From: an uncultured bacterium
GTDB lineage: Bacteria > Patescibacteriota > Minisyncoccia > Phycocordibacterales > PALSA-1337
Assembly (NCBI GenBank): GCA_903870315.1
Contig: CAIQCJ010000002.1
Span: forward strand, 4,820 to 68,819
Length of the DNA: 64,000 nucleotides
Direction of reading: 5' to 3'
This document shows, in pieces, positions 10,300-28,549 of this stretch. Position 1 is the first letter of the stretch. Every line of letters begins with the position of its first letter. Position numbers and translations under genes: made by a program. The notes beneath the pieces are model-generated. The model had not been told where the DNA came from. It saw only the letters and a program-made list of their open reading frames with translations, and made no database searches.

Positions 10300-10818
10300 A
10301 TGAAAGAATTAATCAAAAAATTATTCGGAATAAAAGACAGTGCATCAATGCAGGGGATTATTAAAATCCGAGCATATAAAGCTGGCACTAAGGAATTGGT
10401 TCGGGAGATTGTGTGCAAAAACACTATCATGCAAGCAGCGAATATTGGCAAAGATTTGATCGTGCAGAAACTCATTGCAACAGCAACAGGAATTGATCCG
10501 TACACATTGCACATTACATATGGAGCTATTGGCACAAGTCAAACAGCACCAACAACAGCAGATACTCGACTTGGCGCGGAATCAGCTAGGGTCGCAATTA
10601 CATTCGGACAAGATAGCGGATACAACATCGCAGTCATGCAGTTTTTCTTTCCAGATTCTTCGCTAACAAACCAAACATACTATGAATTTGGAACTTTTGT
10701 TGACGGAACATCTACTCCAAATAGTGGACAGCTTTTCAATCATGCACTTTTCGGAGTGCCTTATTCCAAATCGGCCGGTATTGATACCACGATCGAGGTC
10801 GATATAACTCTTACTTAA
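10300..10818 (+). CDS. Phage tail protein (hypothetical)
   Basis: 172 aa ORF in tail module. No motif recognised. Confidence 0.3.
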   Translation: MKELIKKLFGIKDSASMQGIIKIRAYKAGTKELVREIVCKNTIMQAANIGKDLIVQKLIATATGIDPYTLHITYGAIGTSQTAPTTADTRLGAESARVAITFGQDSGYNIAVMQFFFPDSSLTNQTYYEFGTFVDGTSTPNSGQLFNHALFGVPYSKSAGIDTTIEVDITLT

Positions 10819-10823
10819 AAAAT

Positions 10824-11816
10824 ATGATATCAACAGGACAACAAGCACTCGCATCCGACTTCATCGCTACTTCCGCAGGCGCGGGAAGCAGTGGTCAGGT
10901 TCCGAAATGCAATTCACTCGGAAAGATAGATAACTCTTTTCTTCCAATTAAATTCGGCGGTACCGGAGCGGATGGTGTGCTTTCAATCACATCGGGTACG
11001 ACAACAATAAGCGCCGGAAGTGCAAGTGTTCTTGTTAAAAATTACACATCCATATCGATCACAGGAACTGGAAAACTCGCATTTTCAAATCCCGGATCAA
11101 ATGGAACTTTAATATTTCTAAAATCGCAAGGAAACGTAACACTCACGTCATCAACCGCTCCAATGATTGATGCCTCTAATATGGGAGGTCCGGCAGGAAC
11201 GGCTGGATATTATGGCGATGGAACTAGCCCAACACAAGGAGCGGGCGGAAACTTTTATAGCGGTGGATCATGGGGACAAGGCGGTGGTGGTGGAGGTGGA
11301 GGTGGCGCACTTTCAGGTGGTGGCACTGGTTACTACAGTGGAAGTGTGCCTGCTGCCGGTGGAGGAACGACTGGTCTGAAAAGTATTCTCGCATCTTACG
11401 CTTACGCAAAAGGGACGAAACTCGTGACAGGTGCAGGCGGTGGTACAGGAAACAACGGAGCAGGTTATGGTGCATCAGGTGGTGCAGGTGGAGTCGGAGG
11501 CGGATGTTTGGTAATTGAATGCGCCGGTTATTTAAATTTCACAACAGCAAACGGAATTTCTGCCGCAGGATCGAATGGTGGAAACGGAACATCAAGTGGT
11601 AATGGAAATGGATTCGATGGTGGTGGGGGTGGTGGAGGCGGAGGTGGAACTGTAATTCTTTTATACAACCTTCTTACAGCAAATTCAGGAACAGTAAATG
11701 TTAATGGCGGAAACGGCGGGAACGGAGGTACTGGCGGAACTGGAAGTCCTGCCGGTTCAGGTGGTGGCGGGGGTAGCGGCTTGTCATTAGTAGCTCAAAA
11801 TACAGAATTTACATAA
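10824..11816 (+). CDS. Glycine-rich tail fibre-like protein with poly-Gly tracts
   Basis: 330 aa, runs of 8-10 Gly (GGGGGGGGG) and GxG repeats. Last gene of the tail module. Confidence 0.4.
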   Translation: MISTGQQALASDFIATSAGAGSSGQVPKCNSLGKIDNSFLPIKFGGTGADGVLSITSGTTTISAGSASVLVKNYTSISITGTGKLAFSNPGSNGTLIFLKSQGNVTLTSSTAPMIDASNMGGPAGTAGYYGDGTSPTQGAGGNFYSGGSWGQGGGGGGGGGALSGGGTGYYSGSVPAAGGGTTGLKSILASYAYAKGTKLVTGAGGGTGNNGAGYGASGGAGGVGGGCLVIECAGYLNFTTANGISAAGSNGGNGTSSGNGNGFDGGGGGGGGGGTVILLYNLLTANSGTVNVNGGNGGNGGTGGTGSPAGSGGGGGSGLSLVAQNTEFT

Positions 11817-13579: not shown

Positions 13580-13608
13580 CTAGGTTGTTAGAAATTAACA
13601 GTAAAAAC

Positions 13609-14691
13609 ATGGAAGACAACAGCCGAAAATTTGATCACAGAATTAAAAATCCTGAGCCTCATATCGTCGCTTTTTTGGCAGCGATAGATGAAATTCGTGG
13701 AGCTTTTCGCGTTGGTCTTCGCATGACTCCTCAAGCGATCACCAATCTGCACAAATCCGTACTCGTGACATCAGCTGGTGCTTCTACACGTATTGAAGGT
13801 GCAAAACTTTCTGACGAAGAAGTAAAGAAAATCATGGAAGGATTCTCAATCCAAAAATTCTCCGATCGTGATTCACAGGAAGTGCAGGGCTATCTTGAAA
13901 CGCTCAAAAATGTTTTCGACAATTATAAAGACTTGCCATTGCGAGAAAGCATAATTACTTCGCTCCACAAAGAGCTTCTAAAATATTCAAACAAGGACGA
14001 CTTACATCGTGGAGAATACAAGCATAAGGAAAATCTAGTCGGCGTTCTCGATGCCAAAGGAAATGTGGCAAAGATCATGTTTGAAACAACCCCAGCATAT
14101 CTCACACAAAAAGAGATGACTGAGCTTGTTGAATGGACACAGGAAGCACTAGAGAAAGAACGCTTCCATCCACTTCTAGTGATCGCCAATTTCCTTATTG
14201 AATTCCTGAAAATACACCCATTTGAAGACGGAAATGGTCGTATTTCGCGTGTTCTCACGAACTTACTACTTCTTCGACAAGGCTATTCATTTGCACAATA
14301 CGTCTCGCATGAGCAGATCATAGAGCAACGCAAGGATCAATACTATCTTGCTCTCCGATCATCGCAGGCGACATTTAGAAGTCAAACCAAGCCGGAAGGA
14401 CAAGAAGAAACGATCACACCTTGGCTCAACTTCTTCTTTTCAGTTGTGAAAGAACAGGCAGACAAGTCAATCGTGCTTGTAGAAGAAGAAACACACGAAG
14501 ACATAATGTCTCCAAAGCAAAACGAAGTCTTGGAATATCTCTCAAAGGTAAAAGAAGCTGGTCCAGCCGAGATTGTCAGAGAAACTGGAATTATTATGCC
14601 ATCGGTTCGTAAATCACTTGAACGGCTTGTCGAGCTTGGCAAAGTAAAAAGAATTGGTCGAGGCAGAGCAACGAGGTACGTAAAAATATAA
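13609..14691 (+). CDS. Fic family protein (Fic/Doc AMPylation-type domain) with C-terminal winged-helix-like region
   Basis: Canonical Fic motif HPFEDGNGRISR. ORF-track start 13585 is TTG; ATG (MEDNSRKF) at 13609 chosen. Confidence 0.8.
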   Translation: MEDNSRKFDHRIKNPEPHIVAFLAAIDEIRGAFRVGLRMTPQAITNLHKSVLVTSAGASTRIEGAKLSDEEVKKIMEGFSIQKFSDRDSQEVQGYLETLKNVFDNYKDLPLRESIITSLHKELLKYSNKDDLHRGEYKHKENLVGVLDAKGNVAKIMFETTPAYLTQKEMTELVEWTQEALEKERFHPLLVIANFLIEFLKIHPFEDGNGRISRVLTNLLLLRQGYSFAQYVSHEQIIEQRKDQYYLALRSSQATFRSQTKPEGQEETITPWLNFFFSVVKEQADKSIVLVEEETHEDIMSPKQNEVLEYLSKVKEAGPAEIVRETGIIMPSVRKSLERLVELGKVKRIGRGRATRYVKI

Positions 14692-14695
14692 AATT

Positions 14696-16636
14696 ATGAA
14701 AAATAGTACAAAAAAAATTAATCTAACATCATCAAATCTCAGTGAAGAAAAGCTTTATGATCTGAAAAAAATATTGCCAGAAGTATTTAGTGAAAATAAA
14801 ATTGATTGGGACAAATTAAAAACTGTCCTTGGCGACAACATTGATCCTCGACTTGAAAAATTCGGGCTTTCTTGGGCTGGAAAAAATAATGCCATACGTA
14901 GCGTTATAGTTCCAAGCAGTTCGACACTTCGTCCAGACACAAAGGCAAGCGTAAATTTCAACGTGACAGAAAATCTATTCATTGAGGGTGATAACCTAGA
15001 AGTTTTGAAACTTTTACAAAAGGCGTATTTTGAAAAAGTAAAAGTTATATACGTAGATCCTCCATATAACACTGGATCAGATTTTGTTTATAAAGATGAT
15101 TTTAAATCTCCAATCAAGGCATACCTTGAGCAGACAGGCCAAGTAACCAATGATGGACAGAGGCTTCAAACAAACAAAGAGACGAACGGACGATATCATA
15201 GTGATTGGCTTTCAATGATGTATCCTCGACTTAAATTAGCGTGGAATCTCCTAAGAGAAGATGGAATAATTTTTGTAAGTATTGATGACAATGAGGTCAA
15301 TCATTTACGATTAATCATGGATGAAATATTTGGCGAGGAAAACTATTTGAATGCGTTTTGTTGGGTTAATAATCTAAAGGGTCGTCAAATATCTGGATCA
15401 GGAGCGGCGAAAACATATGAATATGTATTGGCATATGCTAAGAAAATTGAAAATGTTGGAATATTTGAGATGTCTGTTGAGAAATTAAAAGCTTTGATGC
15501 CTAGTAGTTACAAAGGATTTAATTATGAGACTGAAAATGACGAGGGTGGAGACTTTGTTGTAAAAAATGAACTTTATAATACAAACTCTGCTTTCAACGA
15601 AGAAACTCGTCCTAGTTTGGTTTACAATATTCACTATAATTTCAAAACAAAAGAGGTAAAGTTTTCTAGTATTAAAGAAGATGTTGATTTTGCCGGCTTT
15701 ACGAAAATTACACCAAAGAAAAACAACAATGGGAGACACAAATATCATGCTTGGAGATGGAGCAAAGACAAGGTTGCTAATGAATTAGCTGATTTAAAAT
15801 TTGTCGAAACAAAAGAGGGTGCAAAGATCTATACAAAGATCCGTGAATATACAAGCACTGCATTAAAAGACATAATCACTGATATTACAACAAGTAATGG
15901 AGCGAGCGATATTAAAGAATTATTTAATGGTGCAAAATACTTTGACTATCCAAAGCCTGTTGATTTACTAAAAGTATTTATCAGCCAAATGGGGACCGAG
16001 GGTATTGTTTTGGACTTCTTCGCGGGTTCTGGTACAACAGCCCATGCGGTGATGAGTCTTAATGCTGAAGATGGTGGAAGTAGAAAATTTGTCTTGGTTC
16101 AACTACCTGAAAGTACTAATAAAGAAAGCGAGGCGTATAAGGATGGATACAAAACTATAGCAGATATTGCCATAGAGCGTATTCGTCGCGCAGCAAAAAA
16201 ACTGTCAGACAAAACGGGTTTCAAGGTATTTAGACTGGGAGCTTCTAACTATCCAGAAAATAACTTTGAGTTTGATCCAGATAAAAGCGAGGATGAAAAT
16301 AAAAAAGCTTTTACATCCTATCTTGTAAAAGCAAAACAAAGTTCGCTATTTGATGATGAAAATGGTCTAGATGTTGTGTATGAAAATATTGTAAAAGAAG
16401 GTTTTTCGCTGAACTCTGTAATAGAGGAAAGAAAACTTGGCAAAAATAATCTTTACATCGTGAAGGACGGTGAACGCAAAATTCATATTTGTCTAGATAA
16501 AACAGTTGACAAAGATACGATCAAAGAACTCTCTGATCGCAATTACAAAGATTCAGTATTTATATGTATTGATAATGCTTTGGATGACACGGGGAAGGCG
16601 AACCTGGGTCTTAATCTAGAACTTAAAACTATTTAA
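14696..16636 (+). CDS. mod: Type III restriction-modification system methyltransferase (Mod, beta-class N6A/N4C MTase)
   Basis: Motif IV DPPY (KVIYVDPPYNTGSDF) precedes motif I FxGxG (VLDFFAGSGTTAHAV), i.e. beta-class order typical of Type III Mod. Immediately followed by res. Confidence 0.85.
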   Translation: MKNSTKKINLTSSNLSEEKLYDLKKILPEVFSENKIDWDKLKTVLGDNIDPRLEKFGLSWAGKNNAIRSVIVPSSSTLRPDTKASVNFNVTENLFIEGDNLEVLKLLQKAYFEKVKVIYVDPPYNTGSDFVYKDDFKSPIKAYLEQTGQVTNDGQRLQTNKETNGRYHSDWLSMMYPRLKLAWNLLREDGIIFVSIDDNEVNHLRLIMDEIFGEENYLNAFCWVNNLKGRQISGSGAAKTYEYVLAYAKKIENVGIFEMSVEKLKALMPSSYKGFNYETENDEGGDFVVKNELYNTNSAFNEETRPSLVYNIHYNFKTKEVKFSSIKEDVDFAGFTKITPKKNNNGRHKYHAWRWSKDKVANELADLKFVETKEGAKIYTKIREYTSTALKDIITDITTSNGASDIKELFNGAKYFDYPKPVDLLKVFISQMGTEGIVLDFFAGSGTTAHAVMSLNAEDGGSRKFVLVQLPESTNKESEAYKDGYKTIADIAIERIRRAAKKLSDKTGFKVFRLGASNYPENNFEFDPDKSEDENKKAFTSYLVKAKQSSLFDDENGLDVVYENIVKEGFSLNSVIEERKLGKNNLYIVKDGERKIHICLDKTVDKDTIKELSDRNYKDSVFICIDNALDDTGKANLGLNLELKTI

Positions 16637-16639
16637 TTT

Positions 16640-19258
16640 ATGAAGCTTAAATTTGACGCAAATCAAGATTTTCAGATCGATGCGATAAATGCGATCGCTG
16701 ATCTTTTTGAAGGTCAAAGCAAGACAGCAAGTAAAATGATAGCTGGTAGTGGGCTTCTTGGTATTTATCCAAATATTCTCACTCTTACAAAAGAGGAGAT
16801 ATTAATAAATACGGCTAAAGTTCAGGATCATAATGGGATCTTGAATGGTGGTTTGGTAAAAGATTTAGATTTCTCTATTGAAATGGAAACTGGTACGGGT
16901 AAAACTTATGTCTATATACGAACCATTTTTGAATTAAATAGAAAATATGGTTGGAAAAAGTTTATTATTCTTGTGCCTTCAGTTGCAATTCGCGAAGGAG
17001 TCATAAAGACACTTAAAATAACTAAGGATCATTTTGCTGATCTTTACGATAATGTTCCATATCGTTTTTATGAGTATCAGTCAAAAAATATTTCTCAGGT
17101 TAAACATTTTGCAGATAGTAGTAATATCGAAATAATGGTTATGACGATTGGAGCTTTCAACAAAGACACGAATGTTCTATATAGTGAGCGAGATCAAATG
17201 CATGGTGAACAACCGATTAGCTATATTCAAAAGACTAACCCTATTTTAATTTTGGATGAACCTCAAAATATGGAGGGAGATTCGACAAAAAAGGCGATCG
17301 ATAATTTTAATTCAATATTTCGTTTGCGATATTCTGCAACACACAAGAATTTGTACAACCTAGTCTATCAACTTGCTCCATATGATGCCTATCAACTCGG
17401 ACTAGTTAAAAAGATAGAAGTATTTTCTGTTGTTGATCAAGACGATGCAACATCAGCCCCACTAATAAATTTAATTGAAGTTAAACCTAGTAAGACTGCC
17501 CTCAAAGCTCAAGTGGAGATAATATCAAAAGACGATCAGGGTGAAGGAAAGAAAAAAAAGATCAGCGTAAAACAGGGTGATGACCTAGCAAAAAAGACCA
17601 ACAATGCAACATATGAAGGTTATGTTATTGAAGAACTCACAGCTGACGCTCCAGATTTTGGCTCAATCGGCTCTATTCGCTTTAGAAATAATATACAGAT
17701 TAAGAAGGGCGAAGGTATTGGTGGAAATCGTGAAGACATAATGAAAGAGCAGATTACTGAAACAATCAAATTGCATTTTGAAAAGAAGAAAAAACTTAGA
17801 GAGTTTGGAATTAAAGTTCTTTCATTATTTTTTATTGATCGTGTTGATAATTATGTGAAAGACGATGGTTTTATCAGACAAACATTCATAAAGCAATTCA
17901 ATATTCTTAAAAAAGAATACGGTGAAAGTGGCGCAAACGTAAATACTGTCCATAAGGGATACTTTGCAATGAAGAATGCAAATGAGTACATTGAGCGTGA
18001 ATCTGCAATAGCTGAAAACAAAGAGGCTTACGAACTGATAATGAAAGACAAGGAAAGATTACTTTCTTTTGAGGAACCAACAGAATTTATCTTTTCACAC
18101 TCTGCACTTAAGGAAGGTTGGGACAATCCAAATATTTTTAATATTTGCACACTTAATCTTACATCTTCGACGATGAAAAAACGTCAAGAAATTGGTCGAG
18201 GTATGCGACTCTGCGTTAATCAGGATGGAGAACGAATCTTCTTAAAAAATATTAATCTTTTGTCAGTGATTGCAAACGAGAGTTACTCCAGCTATGTCGC
18301 AGGCCTTCAGTCTGAGTTTGTTGATGATGGTATATACAAAGCACCGCCATTACCATACAACGCAAAAAGAAAAATCACAGTTAAACTCAAAAGAGGATTC
18401 AATACTGACGAAAATTTCAAAGCAATATGGGATCGTATATCAAAAAAGACAAAATACGTAGTTCGAGTTGATTCTGGCCGTGTTCTTGAGCGAGCAATAA
18501 AAAGAATCAATGAATTAAAGATACTTAAACCTCAAATTAAAATTGAGCGTGCAGGAATATCTATTGCACAGGAGGGTATCGCGGCAAGTATAATAGGCGG
18601 TCAATCTTTTGAACTTACACAAAACAAGCGTACGATTGATTGCGTTGGACTTATTAAAAGTGAGACAAAACTCACAAGAGACACAGTGGCAACAATTTTA
18701 GAAAAGTCTAAAAACCTTAAATCTTTCTTCAATAATCCTGAGAAATTTATTTATGAGGTGACGAAAATAATAAAAGAAGAATTGGTACATGATTATATTG
18801 AGCAGATAAGCTATGAAATTATTCCTGAAAAATACAATGTGGATCAATTTGAAAATATTTCAAGCTATGTTGATGCGACAGAGCCAGTTAAACACTCAAT
18901 CTATGAAGCCATTGTCTATGATTCCGAAGTTGAACAACAATTTGCAGTAGATCTTGATCAGGATGAAAGAATTAAATTATTTATAAAACTTCCAGCTTGG
19001 TTCAAGGTTGAAACACCGGTGGGAACATATAACCCAGACTGGGCTATTGTAACAGCAAAAAGAGATCTGCAAGGGAAGGAGGATCATGAAAAAGTCTATT
19101 TTATAATTGAGACAAAGGGCGGTACAAACCTGAGATCGTCCGAACGTGCAAAGATAGATTCAGCCAAGAAGCACTTTGAAGTGATCTCGGTTAACTATAA
19201 AGAGATCAACAAAGGCTATAAACAATTTAATCAGGAATGCTTGATTAATAAGCAATAA
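16640..19258 (+). CDS. res: Type III restriction enzyme Res subunit (SF2 helicase plus C-terminal PD-(D/E)xK endonuclease)
   Basis: Walker A METGTGKTYV, motif II ILDEPQNM, C-terminal YNPDWAIV ... IIETKG nuclease motif. 3-nt spacing after mod. Confidence 0.85.
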   Translation: MKLKFDANQDFQIDAINAIADLFEGQSKTASKMIAGSGLLGIYPNILTLTKEEILINTAKVQDHNGILNGGLVKDLDFSIEMETGTGKTYVYIRTIFELNRKYGWKKFIILVPSVAIREGVIKTLKITKDHFADLYDNVPYRFYEYQSKNISQVKHFADSSNIEIMVMTIGAFNKDTNVLYSERDQMHGEQPISYIQKTNPILILDEPQNMEGDSTKKAIDNFNSIFRLRYSATHKNLYNLVYQLAPYDAYQLGLVKKIEVFSVVDQDDATSAPLINLIEVKPSKTALKAQVEIISKDDQGEGKKKKISVKQGDDLAKKTNNATYEGYVIEELTADAPDFGSIGSIRFRNNIQIKKGEGIGGNREDIMKEQITETIKLHFEKKKKLREFGIKVLSLFFIDRVDNYVKDDGFIRQTFIKQFNILKKEYGESGANVNTVHKGYFAMKNANEYIERESAIAENKEAYELIMKDKERLLSFEEPTEFIFSHSALKEGWDNPNIFNICTLNLTSSTMKKRQEIGRGMRLCVNQDGERIFLKNINLLSVIANESYSSYVAGLQSEFVDDGIYKAPPLPYNAKRKITVKLKRGFNTDENFKAIWDRISKKTKYVVRVDSGRVLERAIKRINELKILKPQIKIERAGISIAQEGIAASIIGGQSFELTQNKRTIDCVGLIKSETKLTRDTVATILEKSKNLKSFFNNPEKFIYEVTKIIKEELVHDYIEQISYEIIPEKYNVDQFENISSYVDATEPVKHSIYEAIVYDSEVEQQFAVDLDQDERIKLFIKLPAWFKVETPVGTYNPDWAIVTAKRDLQGKEDHEKVYFIIETKGGTNLRSSERAKIDSAKKHFEVISVNYKEINKGYKQFNQECLINKQ

Positions 19259-19262
19259 ATTT

Positions 19263-20429
19263 ATGAAAGAAAGAATTAAGGATACAATACAAGACTGTAA
19301 CATCAATTTCCTGATTGGATCCGGACTTTCTTCTCCGTTCTTAAAAACACTCGGAAATATCGAAATACTACTTACAAAATTAGATGACCAAAATATTACT
19401 GACACAGAAAAGAAAGTGATTCGAGCATCACTCTACAAAAAATTTTTTGAAGATGCGATCCTTAAAAATCCCAAGATATTAGAGTCAGATATTGATGCTA
19501 ATTCTGCACTGAAGCATTATCACGACTTTCTGAAGTCAATTAACTCAATTCTTCTTAGACGTAAAAGTACGATATTAAGTAAGGAAGTTAATTTATTTAC
19601 TACCAACTTCGATATTTTTTTAGATAAAGCTCTCGAAGATGTATCAGTTGAATACAACGATGGATTCAATGGTCGATTTCTCCCTCAATTTAGTCTAACC
19701 AACTTCAAAAAATCAAGGTTTAAAAAGAGCCTGCATTATGACAACATATCAGAAATACCTGTATTTAATTTGCTTAAATTACATGGATCACTTTCTTGGA
19801 AACTGATTGATAAAACGGAAAATAGTGAAATAGTATTTTCTTCTGACTTGTCCAATCTTAAGGATATACAAAGTAAGATACCGAGCATGGAACACCTGAT
19901 TGATGTTCAAGCTGACTCAACAGTAGAGACCCTAGTAAATGCTGTCCCGGGCAAAGTCCTTGATCCATCAGTTCAAACCTTTATGGAAGCATATGAAAAG
20001 CTCTCGATTGTAAATCCTAATAAAGATAAGTTCCGTCACACACTACTTAATCAGACTTACTACGAAATGCTTAGGATATATTCGAATGAATTGGAAAAAG
20101 AAAATACCGTTTTGTTTGTCATGGGTTTTTCTTTTGCAGACGAGCATATCCGTGAAATTACACTTCGCGCAGCCAATTCTAACCCGACAATGATGATCTA
20201 TATATTTGCATATAGCTCAAAGAGTAAAGCGGACATTCAATCTAAATTCGATTCAAAAAATATAAAAAATAAGAATATTGTAATTGTCGGTCCAGAAACT
20301 AAAGAGGACGGTGATGACAAATTTAAATACGACCTAGAGACAATTAACGCCCAAATTTTTGATTGTCTTCTTGAAAAAGAGGATACAAAAGAGTCGGCAA
20401 CATCAGATGTGCCTAAGGAGGCTAAATAA
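19263..20429 (+). CDS. SIR2-like (SIR2_2 family) NADase-type defense protein
   Basis: NFLIGSGLSSPF (GxGxS N-terminal block), TTNFD, KLHGSLSW and VMGFSFADEHI blocks characteristic of defense-associated SIR2-like domains. Directly upstream of HerA-like ATPase. Confidence 0.7.
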   Translation: MKERIKDTIQDCNINFLIGSGLSSPFLKTLGNIEILLTKLDDQNITDTEKKVIRASLYKKFFEDAILKNPKILESDIDANSALKHYHDFLKSINSILLRRKSTILSKEVNLFTTNFDIFLDKALEDVSVEYNDGFNGRFLPQFSLTNFKKSRFKKSLHYDNISEIPVFNLLKLHGSLSWKLIDKTENSEIVFSSDLSNLKDIQSKIPSMEHLIDVQADSTVETLVNAVPGKVLDPSVQTFMEAYEKLSIVNPNKDKFRHTLLNQTYYEMLRIYSNELEKENTVLFVMGFSFADEHIREITLRAANSNPTMMIYIFAYSSKSKADIQSKFDSKNIKNKNIVIVGPETKEDGDDKFKYDLETINAQIFDCLLEKEDTKESATSDVPKEAK

Positions 20430-20433
20430 TTTT

Positions 20434-22335
20434 ATGAATAATGATTCAATCGCAGAAGACGCAATTTTCAAAATAGGAAAGGTCATCTCGGTTGATGGCA
20501 GGACAATTAGAGTTGGCATAGATAAAACTAAAAATTCTTCGCATCTTGTATACAAAGGTGAGCTTCTAAAAAATATTTCGGTGGGTGGTTACATAAAAAT
20601 TATTAAGGGGTTCACAAAAATAATTGGCAAGGTTGAGGGAGAATTTATTAATGAAGATAAACAGTTCGGTAAAAAGGGTTATGGTAGCGAGAAGGAAAAG
20701 ATCAATAGAGTCTTGAGCGTCAGTCTACTCGGTTTTTTTAGAGGTAGTCACTTTGAGAGAGGTATTAAAGAATTGCCACTTATTGATAATGAATGCTTTT
20801 TACTTCACAACAGAGAATTTGATCAAGTACATAATTTCATCAAAGATAATGATGATCCTATTACAATTGGTGCATTAGCATTAGAAAAAGGTCAGTCAAT
20901 AAAAGTCGGTATAAATAGTTTATTTGCTAGTCATATTGGAATATTTGGTAACACTGGTAGCGGAAAATCTTACACTCTTGCAAAAATTTATCGTGAACTT
21001 TTTGAGAAATATAAGAATGAAATAAAATTCAAGAGAAATGCTAGGTTTTTTCTGATTGATTTTAACGGAGAATATATAGACACATCTTCGAGAAGTGATA
21101 GTGTAATCATTGATAAAAAATATAAAAGCACCTATAAATTGTCTACTAGAAATGACAAGGGTGACAAGTACCCGATTCCAATAGATGCAATAAGAGAAGC
21201 TGAATTCTGGGTTATTTTTCTTCAGGCAACAGAAAAAACTCAAGCTCCGTTCTTAAAGAGGGCTGTTGAGAGTGTTTATCTTCAGGGCAAGATACAAGTT
21301 GAATCAGATTTAAAAGACATGATCGCAAAGATGATTTTTACTGCGACAACTGATGGTGATAAGACCTTGGAGAAAACAGTCGTAATGAATCTTCTTGAAG
21401 AAATAAAGGATTGCTTGGGGGGTAATACAACAATAGATGATCTTATTTCAGACTATCGCCTCAATCTGCATTATCATAGTAAAAATAATAAATATTACTA
21501 CGGCACTGATTCAGCCACCGCAATGTATAGCGACAATGCTTCATACAAGCAAACTGTTGTTGACGATAAAATTAATACGCTTTCCATAAACACGAAACAA
21601 ATATCTCCTATTGATGAAGTTAGACTTCAAATTGTGATTCAGTACTATGAAGACATAATTAGAGGTTTTTCAAACAAGGAACATCTCTCTCCACTGCTCA
21701 AACGATTAGATAAAAGAGTGGATCATTTAAAGAAGGTGATCAACGTCATAAATGACGCTGAAACCCCAATGCCAAAGCAGAAAAATCTTATTATTGTATC
21801 TCTAAAAGATGTAAATATTCAGATAAGAAAGATCATCCCGATGCTTTTATGTAGAAAGCTGTATAATGATAAAAAAGAAAGTAACAATGATCAGACATAT
21901 CTCAATCTTATAGTTGATGAGGCACACAATATTTTGTCTGAAAATTCAGAAAGGGAAAGTGAGCAATGGAAAGATTACCGCCTTGAGACATTCGAGGAAA
22001 TTATTAAGGAAGGTCGAAAGTTTGGTGTTTTCTTAACAATTGCAAGTCAACGTCCATCGGATATTTCACCAACGATCATATCTCAATTACATAATTACTT
22101 TTTACATAGATTGATAAATAATGAGGATATACGAGCAGTAGAAAAAACAATTTCATATCTCGATAAAGTATCTTTTGAATACCTTCCAATTCTTCCTACG
22201 GGTACATGTATAGTTGCTGGACTTTTGGCAAATGTGCCAGTAGTGGTTGATATTGGTAGAATTATTCCACCTAAGCACGAACCAAAAAATAAGACTCGCA
22301 CGCTTATTGATAAATGGAAAACAAATAAAAAATAA
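20434..22335 (+). CDS. HerA/FtsK-like ATPase (SIR2-HerA partner)
   Basis: ATG at 20434 preceded by aaggagg RBS. N-terminal barrel-like KIGKVISVDGRTIRVG. Walker A GIFGNTGSGKSYTL, Walker B LNLIVDEAHNIL. Confidence 0.7.
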   Translation: MNNDSIAEDAIFKIGKVISVDGRTIRVGIDKTKNSSHLVYKGELLKNISVGGYIKIIKGFTKIIGKVEGEFINEDKQFGKKGYGSEKEKINRVLSVSLLGFFRGSHFERGIKELPLIDNECFLLHNREFDQVHNFIKDNDDPITIGALALEKGQSIKVGINSLFASHIGIFGNTGSGKSYTLAKIYRELFEKYKNEIKFKRNARFFLIDFNGEYIDTSSRSDSVIIDKKYKSTYKLSTRNDKGDKYPIPIDAIREAEFWVIFLQATEKTQAPFLKRAVESVYLQGKIQVESDLKDMIAKMIFTATTDGDKTLEKTVVMNLLEEIKDCLGGNTTIDDLISDYRLNLHYHSKNNKYYYGTDSATAMYSDNASYKQTVVDDKINTLSINTKQISPIDEVRLQIVIQYYEDIIRGFSNKEHLSPLLKRLDKRVDHLKKVINVINDAETPMPKQKNLIIVSLKDVNIQIRKIIPMLLCRKLYNDKKESNNDQTYLNLIVDEAHNILSENSERESEQWKDYRLETFEEIIKEGRKFGVFLTIASQRPSDISPTIISQLHNYFLHRLINNEDIRAVEKTISYLDKVSFEYLPILPTGTCIVAGLLANVPVVVDIGRIIPPKHEPKNKTRTLIDKWKTNKK

Positions 22336-22339
22336 TTAT

Positions 22340-23092
22340 ATGTCAGAATATTACAACGCCAACAGAACAAGAAACATCTACGATCCAGAAAGTCCGGAAC
22401 CTTTTAAGTTGTCACGATCAAAAATCGAGCTCTATATGAAATGCCCGAAATGCTTCTATATGGATCGCAGACTTGGTGTTGGACAGCCACCGGGCTTCCC
22501 GTTTGCCCTAAATTCGGCCGTAGATGCCCTCCTAAAGAAAGAATTCGACATACATAGAGCTAAGAAGACTCCTCATCCGCTTATGAAGGCGTACGGCCTT
22601 GATATGGTCCCTTTTGCACACGAGAAGATGGGAGAGTGGCGAGAGAATTTCAAAGGGGTCCAGTATCACCATGAAGCTACAAATTTCATTATGACCGGAG
22701 CTGTGGACGACTTGTGGGTGAATGGGGAAGGGGAAATCACTGTTGTTGATTACAAATCAACAAGTAAACCTGCAAAAGTAACTCTAGATGCTGACTGGCA
22801 GATTGGATACAAGCGTCAGATGGAAATGTATCAATGGTTACTACGCAAGCTAGGCTTCAAAGTGTCAAATACTGGTTATTTTGTATATTGTAATGGAAAA
22901 ACTGATCGCACAGCATTTGATGGAAAACTAGAATTTGATATTGATTTATTACCCTACACTGGAAGTGACTCGTGGGTCGGCGGAGTCCTCCATGAGATCA
23001 AGCAGTGTCTTGATGGCGAAATGCCAGATTCGAGTCATGATTGCGACTTCTGTAATTTTAGAAAAGCCGCAAATGCAGTTGATAAAAAATAA
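22340..23092 (+). CDS. PD-(D/E)XK nuclease, Cas4/RecB-like with Cys cluster
   Basis: N-terminal CPKC, core GAVDDLWV ... EITVVDYKS (D ... E-x-K), C-terminal HDCDFCNF Cys cluster. ATG at 22340 (MSEYY) chosen over upstream in-frame start. Confidence 0.5.
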   Translation: MSEYYNANRTRNIYDPESPEPFKLSRSKIELYMKCPKCFYMDRRLGVGQPPGFPFALNSAVDALLKKEFDIHRAKKTPHPLMKAYGLDMVPFAHEKMGEWRENFKGVQYHHEATNFIMTGAVDDLWVNGEGEITVVDYKSTSKPAKVTLDADWQIGYKRQMEMYQWLLRKLGFKVSNTGYFVYCNGKTDRTAFDGKLEFDIDLLPYTGSDSWVGGVLHEIKQCLDGEMPDSSHDCDFCNFRKAANAVDKK

Positions 23093-23134
23093 TCTGTCCT
23101 TCATTTAAAAACAAAAATATTGTAAAATTACCAA

Positions 23135-23743
23135 ATGGATCAAATTATCTACATTTTAATAAACGAAGCGATGCCCGGATATGTAAAAGTTGGTAAGACT
23201 ACAGATTTAGAGCAAAGGGTCCGCGATCTATCGCGTGCTTCAGGAGTTCCTCTTCCTTTTGAAGTTTTTTATGCTGCAAAAGTGAAAGACATGCATGAAG
23301 CTGAAAAATTAATACATGATGCCTTTGGAGATACACGCGTAGCTCCGAACCGAGAATTTTTTAAGATTGCTCCAGAAAGAATTGTGGCGGCCTTAAAATT
23401 GGCTCAATTAGAAAATGTAACCCCACATAGCGACTTCGTTGATTCTCCTGAAGAACAAAAAGCTCTAGATAACGCTAGGAAGAATCGGGCAAAATTTAAT
23501 TTTGAAATGGTAAAAATAATGCCGGGTAGTATTTTAACTTTCACTCGAAATCCAGAGATAACATGTAAGGTTATCAATGACACACAAATTGAATATAATG
23601 GGGAAATAAAAAGTCTTTCTGAGGCGGCAAAACTAGCTCTTGGGATTGATTACCAAGTGGCCGGGACATTGTACTGGGAATATGATGGGGAGACATTGGA
23701 TGAACGCCGAAGGCGCTTCGAAGAAGGTAACGATCAAGAATAA
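23135..23743 (+). CDS. T5orf172 (GIY-YIG-like) domain protein with DUF4357-like C-terminus
   Basis: IYILINEAMPGYVKVGKTTDLEQRVRDL ... FEVFYAAKVKDMHEAEKLIHDAF ... NREFFKI matches the T5orf172 pattern. Confidence 0.5.
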   Translation: MDQIIYILINEAMPGYVKVGKTTDLEQRVRDLSRASGVPLPFEVFYAAKVKDMHEAEKLIHDAFGDTRVAPNREFFKIAPERIVAALKLAQLENVTPHSDFVDSPEEQKALDNARKNRAKFNFEMVKIMPGSILTFTRNPEITCKVINDTQIEYNGEIKSLSEAAKLALGIDYQVAGTLYWEYDGETLDERRRRFEEGNDQE

Positions 23744-23917: not shown

Positions 23918-24793
23918 ATGACATTTTCTGAAAACAAAGTTCTAAAATATTTTGAAAAAAATAAAACAACGATACTGACACTGTCATTTTTAGCGTTGGT
24001 CTTTATTGCACTCAATATCTCCGGAAATGCTGTGTACTATAAATTTTTTAATACCAATATAGATCAAGCGACCACCACAGCAGATATATCAACAGGCGGT
24101 TCTCCTTCAAGCTGCAACGTCCTCGGTATAAATTTGCACGGTGAGCTCTATACATATATTCCAAAACAAAATGATGTTGATCCAACGACAAACTATGATG
24201 TGGTTTCTAGCGAGAATGTTGTATCGCTTATCCAGAAAGCTGATCAGGATAGCACCATAAAGGCAATCCTTATAGAAGTAGATTCACCCGGCGGAGAACC
24301 CGTTGCGGGAGAGGAAATTGCGAATGCCCTAAAGACCGCTACCAAGCCAACCGTTGCAGTGATTAGGCAAACTGGAGCATCTGCCGCCTATTGGGCAATC
24401 AGCAGTGCAGGAAAAATATTTGCATCAAGAAATTCTGATGTTGGTAGTATCGGCGTTACCGAATCATACGTTCAAGATCCGACAACGAGCAAAAACTTTG
24501 TACAGATCTCAGTAGGGAAGTATAAAGACACCGGTAATCCAGCTAAACCCCTAACAGCTGATGACAAAGCTCTTCTTTTGAGAGATATCAAAATTGTTCA
24601 ACAGAATTTTATTAATGATGTTGCGACGAATCGAAATCTTTCGGTAGATGCGGTAACAAAAATTGCGGATGGCTCATCAGTTCTTGGAGATAAAGCTAAG
24701 TCAGTTGGTTTGATTGATGAGATTGGAGATGAAACGTCAGCACAAAATTATTTGTCACAAAAAATAGGAACGCCGGCATCTCTTTGTTGGTAA
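23918..24793 (+). CDS. SppA/S49-family membrane serine peptidase (signal peptide peptidase-like)
   Basis: N-terminal TM, AILIEVDSPGGEPVAGEEIANAL, Ser nucleophile context TGASAAYWAIS, Lys in VGKYKD. ORF-track start 23915 is TTG; ATG at 23918. Confidence 0.55.
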   Translation: MTFSENKVLKYFEKNKTTILTLSFLALVFIALNISGNAVYYKFFNTNIDQATTTADISTGGSPSSCNVLGINLHGELYTYIPKQNDVDPTTNYDVVSSENVVSLIQKADQDSTIKAILIEVDSPGGEPVAGEEIANALKTATKPTVAVIRQTGASAAYWAISSAGKIFASRNSDVGSIGVTESYVQDPTTSKNFVQISVGKYKDTGNPAKPLTADDKALLLRDIKIVQQNFINDVATNRNLSVDAVTKIADGSSVLGDKAKSVGLIDEIGDETSAQNYLSQKIGTPASLCW

Positions 24794-24800
24794 AATAAAA

Positions 24801-25076
24801 TTATTTTATATTTGCGATTCCTTTGAAGACCTCCATTTCCATAAGAACGTGATTATAAAGTTCGTCAGAAATTTCGTCATTCTTAAATTCAACTTTCCGT
24901 TTCAAATTATTTACTTCTAAAAAGAGTCTTCTTTTTCGCCCATCAAAATTATATAGAACCACTAGTGTAAAAGATCCATCGAGCTTCTCGTGGTACCAAA
25001 GCGTGGCTTTTTCTCCTTCCCAGATATGACCATTTTTACGTAGGGTCTCAAATGGATCGATTTCATATTTCGACAT
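24801..25076 (-). CDS. Hypothetical protein (91 aa)
   Basis: Only minus-strand ORF in the prophage cargo region. No motif. Confidence 0.3.
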   Translation of the reverse strand: MSKYEIDPFETLRKNGHIWEGEKATLWYHEKLDGSFTLVVLYNFDGRKRRLFLEVNNLKRKVEFKNDEISDELYNHVLMEMEVFKGIANIK

Positions 25077-25160
25077 ACGTGTGTATTAGCATAGATTCCA
25101 AAAAACTCATAGTAAAATAATGTGGTAGTTTATCCACAGATACCCTTGTTTTACTTACTC

Positions 25161-25189
25161 TTGCATTTCTACAATGTGGGAGTATAATG
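25161..25189 (+). promoter_or_regulatory. Sigma70-like promoter TTGCAT-17-TATAAT with embedded AATGTGGGAGT motif, ~230 nt upstream of integrase
   Basis: -35 ttgcat 25161-25166, 17-nt spacer containing tgtgggag (25175-25182), perfect -10 tataat 25184-25189. Confidence 0.35.
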
Positions 25190-25422
25190 TCATCAACCCA
25201 ACCTACTTAGTGCGCGCCAACGTAGGCTAGGGTAGGGAAGATCGAAAAAACCATTATAAGCATTCAGCCTATTGTCCCGTGAGGGAAAGCCCACAAAAGG
25301 CATTGAAGATAGTTCAAAGCCTTTCTTTCGTTCAAAAGTGTGGGGGTTTTTAGAATGTTGATCTCGGAAGACAATCCAACAACTCCTAGACAAGAGGCTT
25401 TGATTAACAAGCAAATAAATAT

Positions 25423-26367
25423 ATGTTACTTCGAGATGCAATCGAAAAATATTTGCTCTGGAAGGGTACTGAGACTCGTGTAGCAGCTAAAGTCTACAGA
25501 CCATTCCTTGAGCATTTCTACACCTACGTTGGCAACAGAGATACCCTCGACATAACCCTTGAGGACATCTCCGGATTCCGAGCATCGTTGCGATTAAAAT
25601 ACAACGATGGCAACATTGCGAACCATAACAATGTGATCAAGAATTTCTACAAATGGCTTGAAGCACTCAGGGCAACAACTGTACATCCATTCCTGATACG
25701 CAACCCAAGATTCCAAGCTCCTGAGAGACCGGTAGCGACACCGGACGAGGTTAAAAGAATGTGCGCTACCCTTAATGAGAATTCCTACGGGGATCTTATA
25801 AGACTTATTGCGATCAGACTCATGTGGGAGTCGATGATCAGGGTAAGCGAGCTTGTGGACCTAAATATTAACGACATCGTGTCGCAAAAGAATTACACAG
25901 AAATTGTAGGTAAGAAAAATTATAAGAAACGATGGATTATGTGGTCGCCAGAAACCCATCAACTCCTGCTAACGTATGTCACCAAGCGAAAAGCGTATCT
26001 TGATCACGAAGCATTGTTCGCTCATGAGAAAGGCGGTGTAGCACAAAGAATGAATACTAGAAGCGTTGAGCGATGGTTAAAAATTGCTCGAGAAAAAGCG
26101 GGTATTGAAAAAGAAATATCTTGTCACGCATTGAGACATGGCGGAGCGCACGAGCTGGTCAAGAAAGGTGCGAGCCTAAAATTCATTGGATTGATCCTCG
26201 GACACTCAGATAACAACCCTCGAGCCGGCATGCAATATCTACGATTCAGTAAGGAGGAATCCCTAGATGTAGTAAACAAATTTGTGGGACTAAGATTCAA
26301 TCCGAATGAAATTCCGCCTCAATTAGAGCCTTTAGTCGGAGCGTATGGAGCTTACAGCATGGCGTGA
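25423..26367 (+). CDS. int: Tyrosine-type phage integrase / site-specific recombinase
   Basis: C-terminal catalytic region HALRHGGAHELV ... LGH ... MQYL (R, HxxR, Y). N-terminal SAM-like core-binding region. Confidence 0.85.
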   Translation: MLLRDAIEKYLLWKGTETRVAAKVYRPFLEHFYTYVGNRDTLDITLEDISGFRASLRLKYNDGNIANHNNVIKNFYKWLEALRATTVHPFLIRNPRFQAPERPVATPDEVKRMCATLNENSYGDLIRLIAIRLMWESMIRVSELVDLNINDIVSQKNYTEIVGKKNYKKRWIMWSPETHQLLLTYVTKRKAYLDHEALFAHEKGGVAQRMNTRSVERWLKIAREKAGIEKEISCHALRHGGAHELVKKGASLKFIGLILGHSDNNPRAGMQYLRFSKEESLDVVNKFVGLRFNPNEIPPQLEPLVGAYGAYSMA

Positions 26368-26409
26368 TGCCTCTTTGTAAATGTGGGAGTTTTATGATAA
26401 ATTGTCATT

Positions 26410-26628
26410 ATGACAAAAGGAGAGGAAAGTAGTAAAAAACCAAAAGGAGGTCGTGGTAAAGTCGAATCGCTTCGAAATCAAGCCATTGTGACCTTATACG
26501 AGACTGATCATAAGCTCTACAACACAAATACGTTGGGGAAGTTATTCGGGCGCGATAGGAAGACCGTTCAAGGCATTATTAAGAGGTTTGCACCTTCACA
26601 GCAAAATAAGACGGCTATCGGCCAATAA
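26410..26628 (+). CDS. Small basic HTH protein (excisionase / transposase-HTH-like)
   Basis: 72 aa, LRNQAIVTLYETDHKLYNTNTLGKLFGRDRKTVQGIIKRF helix-turn-helix-like segment. Directly downstream of int. Promoter-like TTGTAA-17-TGaTAAATT ends about 7 nt before the ATG (possible leaderless mRNA). Confidence 0.4.
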   Translation: MTKGEESSKKPKGGRGKVESLRNQAIVTLYETDHKLYNTNTLGKLFGRDRKTVQGIIKRFAPSQQNKTAIGQ

Positions 26629-26849
26629 AAGGCCTAGGCGGGCTCAAAAGAGTAATCCACTTGTCGCACTTGCTATATGTTGTGGGATGTTTATACTTAA
26701 TGGTGTGATCATTGAAAACTAGATTCTCCACGAAACTTCGGGTGATAGGGGAACTTTTATAGCCGCTTCGAGCGGCATTACAAATACGACACTATGTCGC
26801 ACAATATATCTTTTGCGAAGTGATAAGATATGAAAAAACCGATTATATC

Positions 26850-27173
26850 TTAAAGGCCTGGAGACGGTAGCATCGAAGGTATCTGCTGTATATTGGTTGG
26901 TTGGCCATTTTTCATGGCTGTAAGGTTAGTTATGGCAGGCTTCCAGATAAGGTCTATGAATACTCCATAAAGATATGTTGCTGGTATCTTCAAAAAGTTA
27001 TTCCATATATCCACTACAGAACCACCAACGTATGAGAAATTGTCTTGAGTATTTGGAGAATTGACTATGGAGCGCAAGTTATAACCAAAATAACTCAGGG
27101 TCAGGATAACAACTACGACAAGTATGATCATATTTATGAATCCCCTATTTGTTGACCTTTTTGGAAAAAACAT
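26850..27173 (-). CDS. Small hypothetical membrane protein
   Basis: 107 aa, N-terminal hydrophobic segment. At the phage/host junction, origin unclear. Confidence 0.3.
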   Translation of the reverse strand: MFFPKRSTNRGFINMIILVVVVILTLSYFGYNLRSIVNSPNTQDNFSYVGGSVVDIWNNFLKIPATYLYGVFIDLIWKPAITNLTAMKNGQPTNIQQIPSMLPSPGL

Positions 27174-27238
27174 TTTTGTTGGCGCTGAGGCGCATTAATA
27201 TTTAAAAATCCTTGAACTATGTACTTATTTTACAATAA

Positions 27239-28549
27239 TTATGGTAAATAAGAAAGTGGGTTTAGATATGCTGAGAAAGGCGCAATCGGAATAACCGCAT
27301 CGTAGCAGTTCCTGCTTGATGTAAGTGGTTGGATGACGACACCTTGACTGGCATAGACTCCAAAATGTAGATGTGGCCCAGTTGAATATCCAGTATTGCC
27401 ACTATAACCTATAATATCTCCGGTAGACACAGTAGACCCTATGGTAGCTATTGGCAATGAGAGGTGTGCATACAATGTCGAAAGTCCGTTGTTGTGTTTG
27501 ATCATTACCCATTTACCAAAAGAGTAGCAACCCTTAACTAGATCTGTATTCCCTGTTCCTACAATAATTCCGGAAAGGGCAGCTTTTACAGGTGTGCCTA
27601 TAGATGCGCGGAAATCTACACCGGTATGACCTTTTCCGTTGTATATCTGTGGATTGGCAGTAGAAAACGAAGTATTACCGAAATATTGGGTTATCTTCAC
27701 TACGTCTAGCGGCCAATTCAATATACTTCCAGTTTTTGGTATGGCAGACTTATCGACTGAGGTTGTCAGTTGGGATTCATAGTTCAAAACTTCTTGTTCA
27801 AAGGCTTGTTGTAGACGTAGTTTTTCAGCTAGGATACTTTGATACTGGGCTTGGGATTGTTTGGTATCTTGGAGAAGACTGTTTTGTTGTTGAGCCGTAG
27901 ATAAGACTATGGATTGCTGATTTTTCTTCTGTTTGCTCAGAGAAAGCAGGTCGGCACGAGCTCTCTCGGTACTACTTTTTGTAGACTCCAAAATAGTTTT
28001 ATTTTTCTTCAGGCCGGTTATACGTTCCAGTAGCTGGTTTTGTACGGTTCCAATCTTAGTCAATGAATCCAGAGTATCTGATATAGATTCACTACTCAAT
28101 ATCTTCTCAACCAAAGTAGACCCACTATTTTCTGATAAAGTGGCGAAAGTATCAGCTAAGATACGTTTATCATCATCTATATTCTGAGCACTAGAAGAAA
28201 TATCTGAAGATAGTCTCTGGATATCGAGATTCTTGTTTACTATCTTAGAATTGGTTATTTTCAACTCATCTGAAAGTTTCTTTTGTGTCAACTGAAGAGA
28301 TTTTATGGTCGATGTTAGAGATGAAGCTTGTCCAGACAGTGTATCGATCTGACTCTGGTAACTAGCGATTTCAGTTTCTAGATTCTTGATATCCTGATTC
28401 CTCTGGTTAATCTTAGCCTGGACAGTGTCTACAACAGCACAGGCTGAATGGATTTGTAGGCTTATAGATAAGGTCATAACAGCCACAACTATAAAAATGT
28501 AGTTAGCAACTGATCGATAGATCTTCTTATTTGAGCTTGGAGATAGCAT
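27239..28549 (-). CDS. M23 family metallopeptidase with N-terminal coiled-coil (EnvC-like murein hydrolase activator)
   Basis: Long Q/S/L-rich coiled-coil then HTGVDF and HLHFGV M23 zinc-binding motifs. Confidence 0.7.
   Translation of the reverse strand: MLSPSSNKKIYRSVANYIFIVVAVMTLSISLQIHSACAVVDTVQAKINQRNQDIKNLETEIASYQSQIDTLSGQASSLTSTIKSLQLTQKKLSDELKITNSKIVNKNLDIQRLSSDISSSAQNIDDDKRILADTFATLSENSGSTLVEKILSSESISDTLDSLTKIGTVQNQLLERITGLKKNKTILESTKSSTERARADLLSLSKQKKNQQSIVLSTAQQQNSLLQDTKQSQAQYQSILAEKLRLQQAFEQEVLNYESQLTTSVDKSAIPKTGSILNWPLDVVKITQYFGNTSFSTANPQIYNGKGHTGVDFRASIGTPVKAALSGIIVGTGNTDLVKGCYSFGKWVMIKHNNGLSTLYAHLSLPIATIGSTVSTGDIIGYSGNTGYSTGPHLHFGVYASQGVVIQPLTSSRNCYDAVIPIAPFSAYLNPLSYLP

Follow-up and report, generated by a model that had tools for sequence, protein, structure and literature searches.

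The module and the copies of the motif

The 64-kb stretch analysed here (the window) belongs to contig CAIQCJ010000002.1, from an uncultured bacterium of the Patescibacteriota. It contains a module in which the genes for a Xer-like tyrosine recombinase and a small helix–turn–helix (HTH) protein are accompanied by two predicted structured RNAs and a dif-like core site. A G-rich 9-mer, TGTGGGAGT, recurs along this module, exactly or as close variants, and our subject is this motif and what may read it. An earlier note on the same DNA had pointed to four copies, and had proposed that they form a shared operator, or arm-type recombination sites, around a prophage int/xis pair. The genes, RNAs and core site are as follows:

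25196–25333, plus strand: RNA1, a predicted structured RNA of ~140 nt with its own promoter and terminator
25356–25374, plus strand: hairpin in the recombinase leader, UUGUU-CUCGGAA-AACAA
25423–26367, plus strand: Xer-like tyrosine recombinase, 314 amino acids (Pfam PF00589)
26410–26628, plus strand: HTH protein, 72 amino acids, a predicted three-helix bundle and candidate binder of the motif
26704–26815, plus strand: RNA2, a predicted structured RNA 3' of the HTH gene, its 3' part overlapping the left arm of the core site
26796–26819, plus strand: dif-like core, GTCGCACAA-TATATC-TTTTGCGAA, an imperfect palindrome with a 6-bp centre, present as a single copy in the window

The copies of the motif (sites A to G), the predicted promoters and a neighbouring DnaA-box-like element are:

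25121–25129, plus strand: site A, TGTGGTAGT in the window and TGTGGGAGT in most orthologues, 54 bp upstream of site B
25130–25141, plus strand: DnaA-box-like element TTATCCACAGAT, abutting site A; the reverse complement of cTGTGGATAA and equal to the DnaA-box consensus TTATCCACA
25161–25189, plus strand: RNA1 promoter, with −35 TTGCAT (25161–25166), 17 nt ending in site B, and −10 TATAAT (25184–25189)
25175–25183, plus strand: site B, TGTGGGAGT, at the end of the RNA1 promoter spacer
25339–25347, plus strand: site C, TGTGGGGGT in the window and TGTGGGAGT in orthologues, directly after the RNA1 terminator and ~80 bp 5' of the recombinase ATG
25823–25831, plus strand: site D, TGTGGGAGT inside the recombinase open reading frame (ORF), codons M134-W135-E136-S137
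26283–26291, plus strand: site E, TGTGGGACT inside the 3' end of the recombinase ORF, codons F287-V288-G289-L290
26375–26403, plus strand: HTH-gene promoter, with −35 TTGTAA (26375–26380), 1 nt, site F, 7 nt and −10 TAAATT (26398–26403), a 17-nt spacer; the ATG is 6 nt further on
26382–26390, plus strand: site F, TGTGGGAGT, in the HTH-gene promoter spacer
26670–26697, plus strand: RNA2 promoter, with −35 TTGCTA (26670–26675), a 16-nt spacer containing site G, and −10 TATACT (26692–26697)
26681–26689, plus strand: site G, TGTGGGATG, in the RNA2 promoter spacer

The 11-mer AATGTGGGAGT, which ends in sites B and F, occurs exactly twice in the window, at 25173–25183 and 26380–26390; the earlier note had found both copies but placed each one base too high. 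Its coordinates for TGTGGGGG (25339–25346) and TGTGGGAT (26681–26688) were correct, and to its copies we add those at 25121–25129 (TGTGGTAGT), 25823–25831 (TGTGGGAGT) and 26283–26291 (TGTGGGACT), as well as an inverted TGTGGGCT at 25288–25295. The TGTCAT that it had noticed behind the 11-mer does follow both window copies but is not conserved in orthologues, and its recurrence is probably due to chance.

Counted over the whole window, the motif is no more frequent than chance would have it: TGTGGG occurs 14 times (17 expected), TGTGGGRG four times (1.7 expected) and the 11-mer with two mismatches as often as expected. Nevertheless, the copies are locally enriched. All four TGTGGGRG matches lie within 25175–26389 (1.2 kb) on the plus strand, and seven of the 14 TGTGGG matches fall inside 25175–26686, six of them on one strand. 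When 14 sites were placed at random in 200,000 trials, at least seven fell within 1,512 bp in two trials (p ~1e-5). Beyond the module, no exact TGTGGGAGT is present in the remaining 62 kb of the window, while among 13 loci scanned whole a single exact copy lay outside the module (L019, position 3149, opposite strand), which is at chance level. A scan of viral contigs for TGTGGGAGTATAAT gave at least 120 matches, about chance level by a rough estimate; of these only L028, a member of the family, was informative.

Sites B, F and G lie inside 16–17-nt spacers between the conserved −35 and −10 hexamers of promoters predicted from sequence. A promoter scan listed only TTGCTA-16-TATACT; TTGCAT-17-TATAAT and TTGTAA-17-TAAATT were read directly off the sequence, and the RNA1 promoter is the only match in the window to TTGCWW-N16–18-TATAAT. 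The three −35/−10 pairs of the earlier note are thus present, whereas the further hexamer that it had named, TAGAAT at 25351–25356, has no usable −35. At most sites a −10-like hexamer follows the motif within 0–3 nt (TATAAT at B, TATACT at G, TAGAAT or TACGAT at C, TAAGAT at E). In all loci the −10 of the HTH gene (TAAATT, TAGATT or TAAACT) is found 6–10 nt before the ATG, with no Shine–Dalgarno sequence, which makes a leaderless HTH mRNA plausible, and CTTGCTAT in the RNA2 promoter is invariant. RNA polymerase makes few sequence-specific contacts in the −35/−10 spacer; constraint on the spacers at B, F and G therefore needs another reader.

The module was compared across ~20 orthologous loci from metagenomes and metagenome-assembled genomes (MAGs) of Patescibacteria (candidate phyla radiation, CPR), in which the recombinases are 79–84% identical. 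MAGs carrying close orthologues are named Candidatus Taylorbacteria, Nomurabacteria, Paceibacterota and 'Saccharibacteria', all of them Patescibacteria/CPR. Wherever sequence suffices, the sites recur at constant distances from the recombinase start codon, namely about −300 for A, about −245 for B and about −82 for C, then +400 for D and +860 for E, with F just past the stop codon. Site A was seen at −291 to −315 in 20 of 20 loci with upstream sequence. Across 12 aligned loci with a mean column identity of 67%, TGTGGGAGTATA.T (site B plus the −10) and the TTGC of the −35 are invariant, and in 16 loci the same is true of AATGTGGGAGTTT at site F, where the flanks are variable. Site C is present in 17 of the 21 loci listed with upstream sequence. 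At site G a G-rich 9-mer is found in just four of 16 close orthologues (the window, L015, L227 and L233); L233 carries an identical variant, TGGGGGAGT, at sites B and G, and so displays covariation within one genome.

Two copies are embedded in the recombinase ORF. At site E, 18 of 19 distinct genes have the codons GTG and GGA, the sole exception being L009; of 105 comparable codon columns four are as uniform, two of the four being the adjacent codons of site E. Site E is probably a real site embedded in coding DNA. We reject site D, since its third codon varies between GAG, GAA and GAC among orthologues, without constraint beyond that on the protein, and judge it a coding coincidence.

The orthologue comparison that the earlier note had called for thus bears out its motif, as does the test for local enrichment: TGTGGGAGT is held at the same promoter positions in ~20 loci while the flanking non-coding DNA drifts. 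We conclude with high confidence that the motif is a selected cis-element. It is asymmetric, all its intergenic copies are direct repeats, and only site A has an inverted TGTGG partner. The motif could be read as a mini-ORF (ATG-TGG-GAG, encoding M-W-E; some gene callers start the HTH ORF there), but the frames downstream of site B are not conserved and that of site F in the window stops after 10 codons. Likewise, sites B and F are not crossover sites that excise RNA1 and the recombinase gene, as no inverted binding arms surround the repeats.

The HTH protein and the structured RNAs

The HTH gene adjoins the recombinase gene in every locus, and the HTH family is as narrow in its distribution as the motif. 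The structure of the protein is predicted with a pLDDT (predicted local distance difference test) of ~90 over residues 20–60; its basic N-terminal arm, KGGRGKVE, and its recognition helix, RDRKT, are invariant, and it has a weak Pfam match to HTH_23. The int/xis pairing of the earlier note does not hold, as the small protein matches no Xis fold or family.

A profile search of 1.84 billion representative proteins returned 17 relatives of the HTH protein. The phage-like contig L244 has the order int–HTH–RecT–YqaJ, with an HTH protein 54% identical to that of the window and an integrase 22% identical. Its HTH promoter, TTGATT-tt-AGGGGGACT-ttagtg-TATACT, has the layout of site F, and a second promoter, TTGACC-gata-AGGGGGGAT-atga-TAGTAT, follows the HTH gene. 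L241, a phage related to L244, has no integrase within 5 kb on either side of its HTH gene; 3' of that gene lie a promoter (TTGCAC-aaac-TAGGGGATA-gta-TATACT), a hairpin and a 17/17 match to the core, 130 bp past the stop codon. Because these phage contigs carry its elements, a unit consisting of the HTH gene, a promoter with a G-rich spacer and the core predates the clade of the window, site G corresponding to the spacer element of that unit. As distant homologues of the gene pair sit in phage contigs, the recombinase–HTH module may have a phage ancestry. Separately, the proteins P0093 and P0100 have a KGGRGK-HTH domain and no catalytic domain; the region ahead of the HTH domain can be aligned, if weakly (E = 8e-4, probability 24%), to the first 100 residues of the recombinase.

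RNA1 is predicted to contain a long 5' hairpin with a GUGCCA loop, a GUCCC/GGGA hairpin, a single-stranded AGCCCACA (25288–25295) and a terminator hairpin (25299–25321) followed by a U-rich tail. Minimum-energy folds of 12 diverged loci have this architecture in common while their stem sequences differ, and variants of the 5' stem still pair (CCUAC/GUAGG, CUCUCU/AGAGAG, and GCUC/GAGC versus GCAC/GUGC). The folding z-score is −2.6. Pairing was judged from the folds of individual sequences, as covariation counts on a MAFFT alignment were muddled by two registers of the inner stem. AGCCCACA is invariant in 12 of 12 aligned loci and mostly unpaired in the predicted folds.

In the recombinase-leader hairpin, TTCTCGGAA is invariant and one stem pair changes from U-A to C-G in four of 12 sequences, a compensatory substitution. 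Stem P1 of RNA2 is changed on both sides between loci (UUCUCC/GGGGAA, UCUUCC/GGAAGA, AACCAA/UUGGUU, UACCUC/GAGGUA and ACUCCG/CGGAGU), and stem P2 switches from GCCGC/GCGGC to GCCAC/GUGGC. Rfam was searched with gathering thresholds across the entire window and, over 24700–27300, with E values up to 10; nothing relevant emerged, and RNA1 and RNA2 are both unmatched. The CUCGG of the leader hairpin is also present in a conserved loop of RNA2.

The recombinase, its core site and their surroundings

PF00589 is the only Pfam match of the recombinase above the curated cut-off. Its catalytic residues R140, H235, R238, H261 and Y272 are invariant, its best matches among solved structures are XerA (2e-20) and XerD (2.5e-13), and its distant homologues are named XerC/XerD. 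The alignment to Xer proteins begins at residue 5 (XerC-like 4a8e), 16 (XerA) or 24 (XerD).

Across loci the core has the consensus GTCGCACAA-TATATC-TTTTRCGAC. Its left arm and centre are kept in every locus, exactly in most, and its right arm varies, from TTGTGCGAC to TTTTGGGTA and CCGGCAGG, and is sometimes degenerate; such a pattern would also fit an old hybrid site of element and host. Neither the window nor the flanks of 17 loci yielded a second core, save for a half-site in L237, where the left arm and centre recur 563 bp further right (position 10976), within a DNA_alkylation ORF. Loci L005 and L017 are identical to the left of the core and unrelated from its centre onward. Similarly, L236 and L237, whose HTH proteins are identical, show 100% identity over 3.6 kb, from a Cas4-like gene to the core centre (~10413–10430), and are unrelated beyond it. 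In the L015 clade (L015, L020, L226–L228 and L233) the 24-bp core has the opposite orientation to RNA2 and the remainder of the module.

The full 24-mer is also found in more than 30 IMG/VR contigs, among them small rolling-circle elements with a recombinase 36% identical to that of the window. Since homology between strains breaks inside it, since it is inverted in the L015 clade and since the 24-mer occurs on IMG/VR elements, the core has the properties of a live crossover site. Six IMG/VR contigs (L074, L076, L088, L096, L098 and L104) hold ~5.5-kb elements with a G2P-like Rep and no integrase, flanked by two direct copies of the core and lying beside murG in a low-GC host; they resemble Xer-exploiting proviruses. 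The MurG beside these small Rep elements is 27% identical to that of the window.

Two further observations concern the core. In a 1.7-kb Logan contig (L240, 1–1724), two different recombinase–HTH–RNA2 modules point at a single core from opposite sides; this may be a genuine arrangement or a chimera assembled at the core, which is nearly palindromic. Inside the recombinase ORF, ACGACATCGTGTCGCAAAAGAATTAC at 25871–25897 resembles the hairpin plus the left arm of the core (79% identity to 26786–26804), which may be chance given the conserved S-Q-K codons.

Genes converge on the core in the window and in at least eight of the 11 other loci examined, and GC and AT skew both change there. The right flank (M23 peptidase, GltX, MurG and FtsW) is syntenic in the window, L009, L014 and L236. 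The left flank consists of swappable defence systems. In the window it holds a defence island (13585–23743), in which the GC content falls to 33.5% over 15–22 kb, encoding SoFic, a type III restriction–modification system (methylase and restriction enzyme), SIR2-HerA, a Cas4-like PD-(D/E)XK nuclease and PDC-S57 (T5orf172); in orthologous loci the same place is taken by other systems (type I restriction–modification, CBASS, MmeI-like and AAA_13). Variable cargo upstream of a recombinase gene could recall an integron, but we reject this picture, as no further core or half-core, even with two or three mismatches, is present in the 26 kb to the left.

ARAGORN detected no tRNA or transfer-messenger RNA (tmRNA) gene anywhere in the 64-kb window, which rules out the picture of an integrase next to a tRNA gene. 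The neighbours of the module are defence and housekeeping genes, with no prophage around it in the window, contrary to the prophage setting assumed in the earlier note. The catalytic residues, the XerA/XerD relatives, the flip in skew and coding strand and the flanking genes lead us to conclude that the locus is no intact prophage: a Xer-like recombinase accompanies a dif-like site, and the two occupy a terminus-like position. Either a domesticated element or a bona fide host Xer system would fit the data.

What reads the motif, and relation to known systems

In the mechanism that we propose, TGTGGGAGT with its A/T-rich flanks would be a protein-binding operator that stands, always in the same orientation, at every presumed promoter of a module with four transcripts, in the order RNA1, Xer-like recombinase, 72-amino-acid HTH protein and RNA2, the last running into the dif-like crossover site. 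The HTH protein, as a monomer or as head-to-tail copies, would occupy the −35/−10 spacer at B, F and G, with A, C and E as auxiliary sites, and when bound would hinder RNA polymerase. It would thereby be an autorepressor, with the output of the recombinase gene and of both RNAs likewise tied to its level. We consider it reasonably probable that the motif is a transcriptional operator. The more specific proposal, that the TGTGGGAGT array is the operator for the HTH protein of the module itself, stands at about even chances, and the part of it that names this protein as the binder at even chances or slightly below. A shared operator in promoter spacers for the integrase and small HTH gene, as the earlier note had suggested, fits the fixation of the motif in ~20 loci and the presence, in phage HTH homologues, of a G-rich 9-mer in the same promoter spot. 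The lack of exact TGTGGGAGT in the other 62 kb, and the one stray copy in the 13 loci scanned whole, argue that no global regulon is involved.

Several observations weigh against this proposal. The structure search with the HTH model gave no significant match to a DNA-binding family (best E = 0.11). The motif is non-palindromic, unlike most HTH operators, and shows no dyad symmetry, and the spacing of the sites is not helically phased (A–B 53–55 bp, E–F 86 to 109 bp). Only about half of the loci have a −10-like hexamer at site C, which may not be a promoter site; the site is missing from L016/L028 and L233, and L009 has kept the HTH gene while losing sites C, E and F. In the phage elements (L241 and L244) the spacer words are G-rich yet not identical to TGTGGGAGT. 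Part of the conservation reflects shared ancestry, because all close orthologues belong to one narrow clade. The case for binding and for effects on expression is drawn from sequence comparison; protein binding, the HTH protein as binder and repression are all three things that we infer.

The motif might instead be read by another factor: a host transcription factor, DnaA or a DnaA-like protein, or RNA polymerase with a sigma factor that uses a G-rich element just 5' of the −10. The short distance of 0–3 nt from motif to −10-like hexamer at most sites would suit such a reader, although the motif at site F abuts the −35 and not the −10, and promoters B, F and G already have an ordinary −35 and −10. 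DnaA is suggested by the perfect box TTATCCACA next to site A, and by the TGTGG that the motif shares with the complement of the DnaA box, TGTGGATAA. The element there, TTATCCACAGAT, is the window's only perfect copy; it is kept in eight of 12 orthologues and recurs beside distant recombinase/HTH homologues, phage contigs included (L021 1612; L241 4752/5183/5851; L243 389; L244 5180), and could be an ancestral site of the HTH family or a true DnaA box. The motif itself is no DnaA box, however, as TGTGGGAGT matches TTATNCACA at only five of nine positions and its invariant GAGT is unlike ATAA. L021 favours another reader: the 197 bp that separate its recombinase gene from the end of the contig contain no small ORF, yet GGTGGAGTATAAT is present at its RNA promoter. 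A host regulon or sigma element should, on the other hand, recur, and the motif has no copy in the other 62 kb and is at chance level in the 13 loci. We regard a reader of this kind as unlikely.

A role at the RNA level is less probable still. Here UGUGGG (sites C, D, E and F) would pair with AGCCCACA of RNA1, in cis by extending the terminator stem or in trans with RNA1 as a small RNA and AGCCCACA as its seed. Sites C to F all lie on one putative polycistronic RNA, the partner is invariant and mostly unpaired, as described above, and the minimum-energy fold of the window leader pairs CCCACA with site C. Sites A and B, the best conserved, nevertheless precede the RNA1 start and would be absent from the transcripts. 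Complementarity to RNA1 extends over only 6 bp and does not include the invariant AGT of the motif; with both partners invariant there is no compensatory change. Moreover, L009 has lost site C and keeps AGCCCACA, and phage homologues have a G-rich element but no RNA1.

Equally improbable, in our estimate, is an architectural role, in which the copies would be arm-type, directionality-factor or polar FtsK-loading sites pointing to the dif-like core. Its attractions are the common orientation of the intergenic copies toward the core, the G-rich word, and the fact that the HTH family accompanies the core even in L241, with no integrase within 5 kb on either side; the weak likeness of the region preceding the HTH domain of P0093 to the recombinase N-terminus (E = 8e-4, probability 24%) points the same way. 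In lambda-type attP, arm sites lie within ~150 bp on both sides of the core and an extra N-terminal integrase domain is needed. The present locus has in common with it repeated short asymmetric words near a tyrosine recombinase gene, but the copies lie 115 to 1,675 bp away, all on the same side of the core, and are tied to promoters, and the recombinase has no room for an arm-binding domain; the arm-type proposal of the earlier note is thus unlikely to hold. The fixed register with the −35/−10 hexamers would also be left unexplained. KOPS are spread over both replichores with opposite polarity. As a G-rich 8–9-mer co-oriented toward a dif-like site, the motif does resemble KOPS GGGNAGGG, the FtsK-orienting polar sequences (PMC2800217), but we reject this likeness as an explanation, as the 64 kb hold no copy outside 25.1–26.7 kb, with none elsewhere on the left and no inverted, mirror-image copy in the 37 kb to the right of the core, on the other replichore side.

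None of these three alternatives accounts both for every copy and for the lack of the motif in the rest of the window. Chance recurrence of a short, functionless G-rich word, with which the window counts of TGTGGG and of the two-mismatch 11-mer would agree, is negligible against a clustering of p ~1e-5 and a motif invariant in ~20 loci despite diverged non-coding bases and synonymous sites.

The proposed HTH circuit has its closest parallel in P2 Cox and phage 186 Apl, small DNA-binding proteins that combine the roles of excision factor and promoter repressor. Common to both cases would be a small protein in an integration module, several ~9-bp asymmetric boxes in the same orientation over promoters and a likely coupling of transcription control with recombination. 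Unlike Cox and Apl, the window protein has no sequence or fold match, and its boxes are spread over 1.6 kb and not in tight phased arrays, none being seen on both sides of the crossover site. The circuit resembles this class, and its membership is putative.

The recombinase and its site recall single-recombinase Xer/dif systems: XerS/difSL of streptococci (PMC1914069, PMC2731167), XerH/difH of Helicobacter (PMC3325230), those of the Legionellales (PMC9765430) and archaeal XerA (PMC2958812). In both cases one Xer-like recombinase is linked to an imperfect palindrome with a 6-bp centre at a flip in skew and coding strand, and the same site occurs on small elements without an integrase. The window differs in having an HTH gene and a structured RNA between the recombinase gene and the site; in addition, the right arm is degenerate in several loci, and relatives of the recombinase and HTH protein are found on phage or plasmid-like contigs. 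Xer-exploiting integrative elements, such as CTX-phi, TLC-phi with its activation factor XafT, and the microvirus proviruses of Bacteroidetes (PMC6744903, PMC3091885), are matched by the ~5.5-kb Rep-encoding, integrase-less elements between two copies of the 24-bp site, and phage L241, with its HTH gene and core-like site and no integrase nearby, is reminiscent of a phage-borne Xer helper. The window module, in contrast, has its own recombinase; no likeness to XafT was seen, nor was any tested for.

A full-text literature search found no description of dif or Xer in CPR bacteria. These organisms have as yet no genetic handling, and their promoters, regulators and chromosome maintenance are almost unknown. 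The motif is a real, conserved regulatory element in an uncharacterised module, of which the structured RNAs and the dif-like site are the more unusual part. The locus offers a candidate regulator–operator pair (the 72-amino-acid protein and its putative 9-bp target), three or four promoters defined by sequence, of which two probably give leaderless transcripts, and two new structured RNAs. Its dif-like site is common to chromosomes, small integrase-less Rep elements and phages, and marks a likely replication terminus and a hotspot for the swapping of defence islands. The 3' end of RNA2 falls within the crossover site, and the RNA could thus serve as a guide, gate or mark for recombination at the terminus. 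On this speculative and rather improbable view, RNA1 and RNA2 would be working partners of the Xer-like recombinase in a phage-derived, now chromosomal, unit of Patescibacteria, and the TGTGGGAGT/HTH circuit would time their action, controlling resolution, capture of small phages and turnover of the defence island. Should the HTH circuit operate as proposed above, it would illustrate how a phage integration module came to be kept and wired into the host chromosome.

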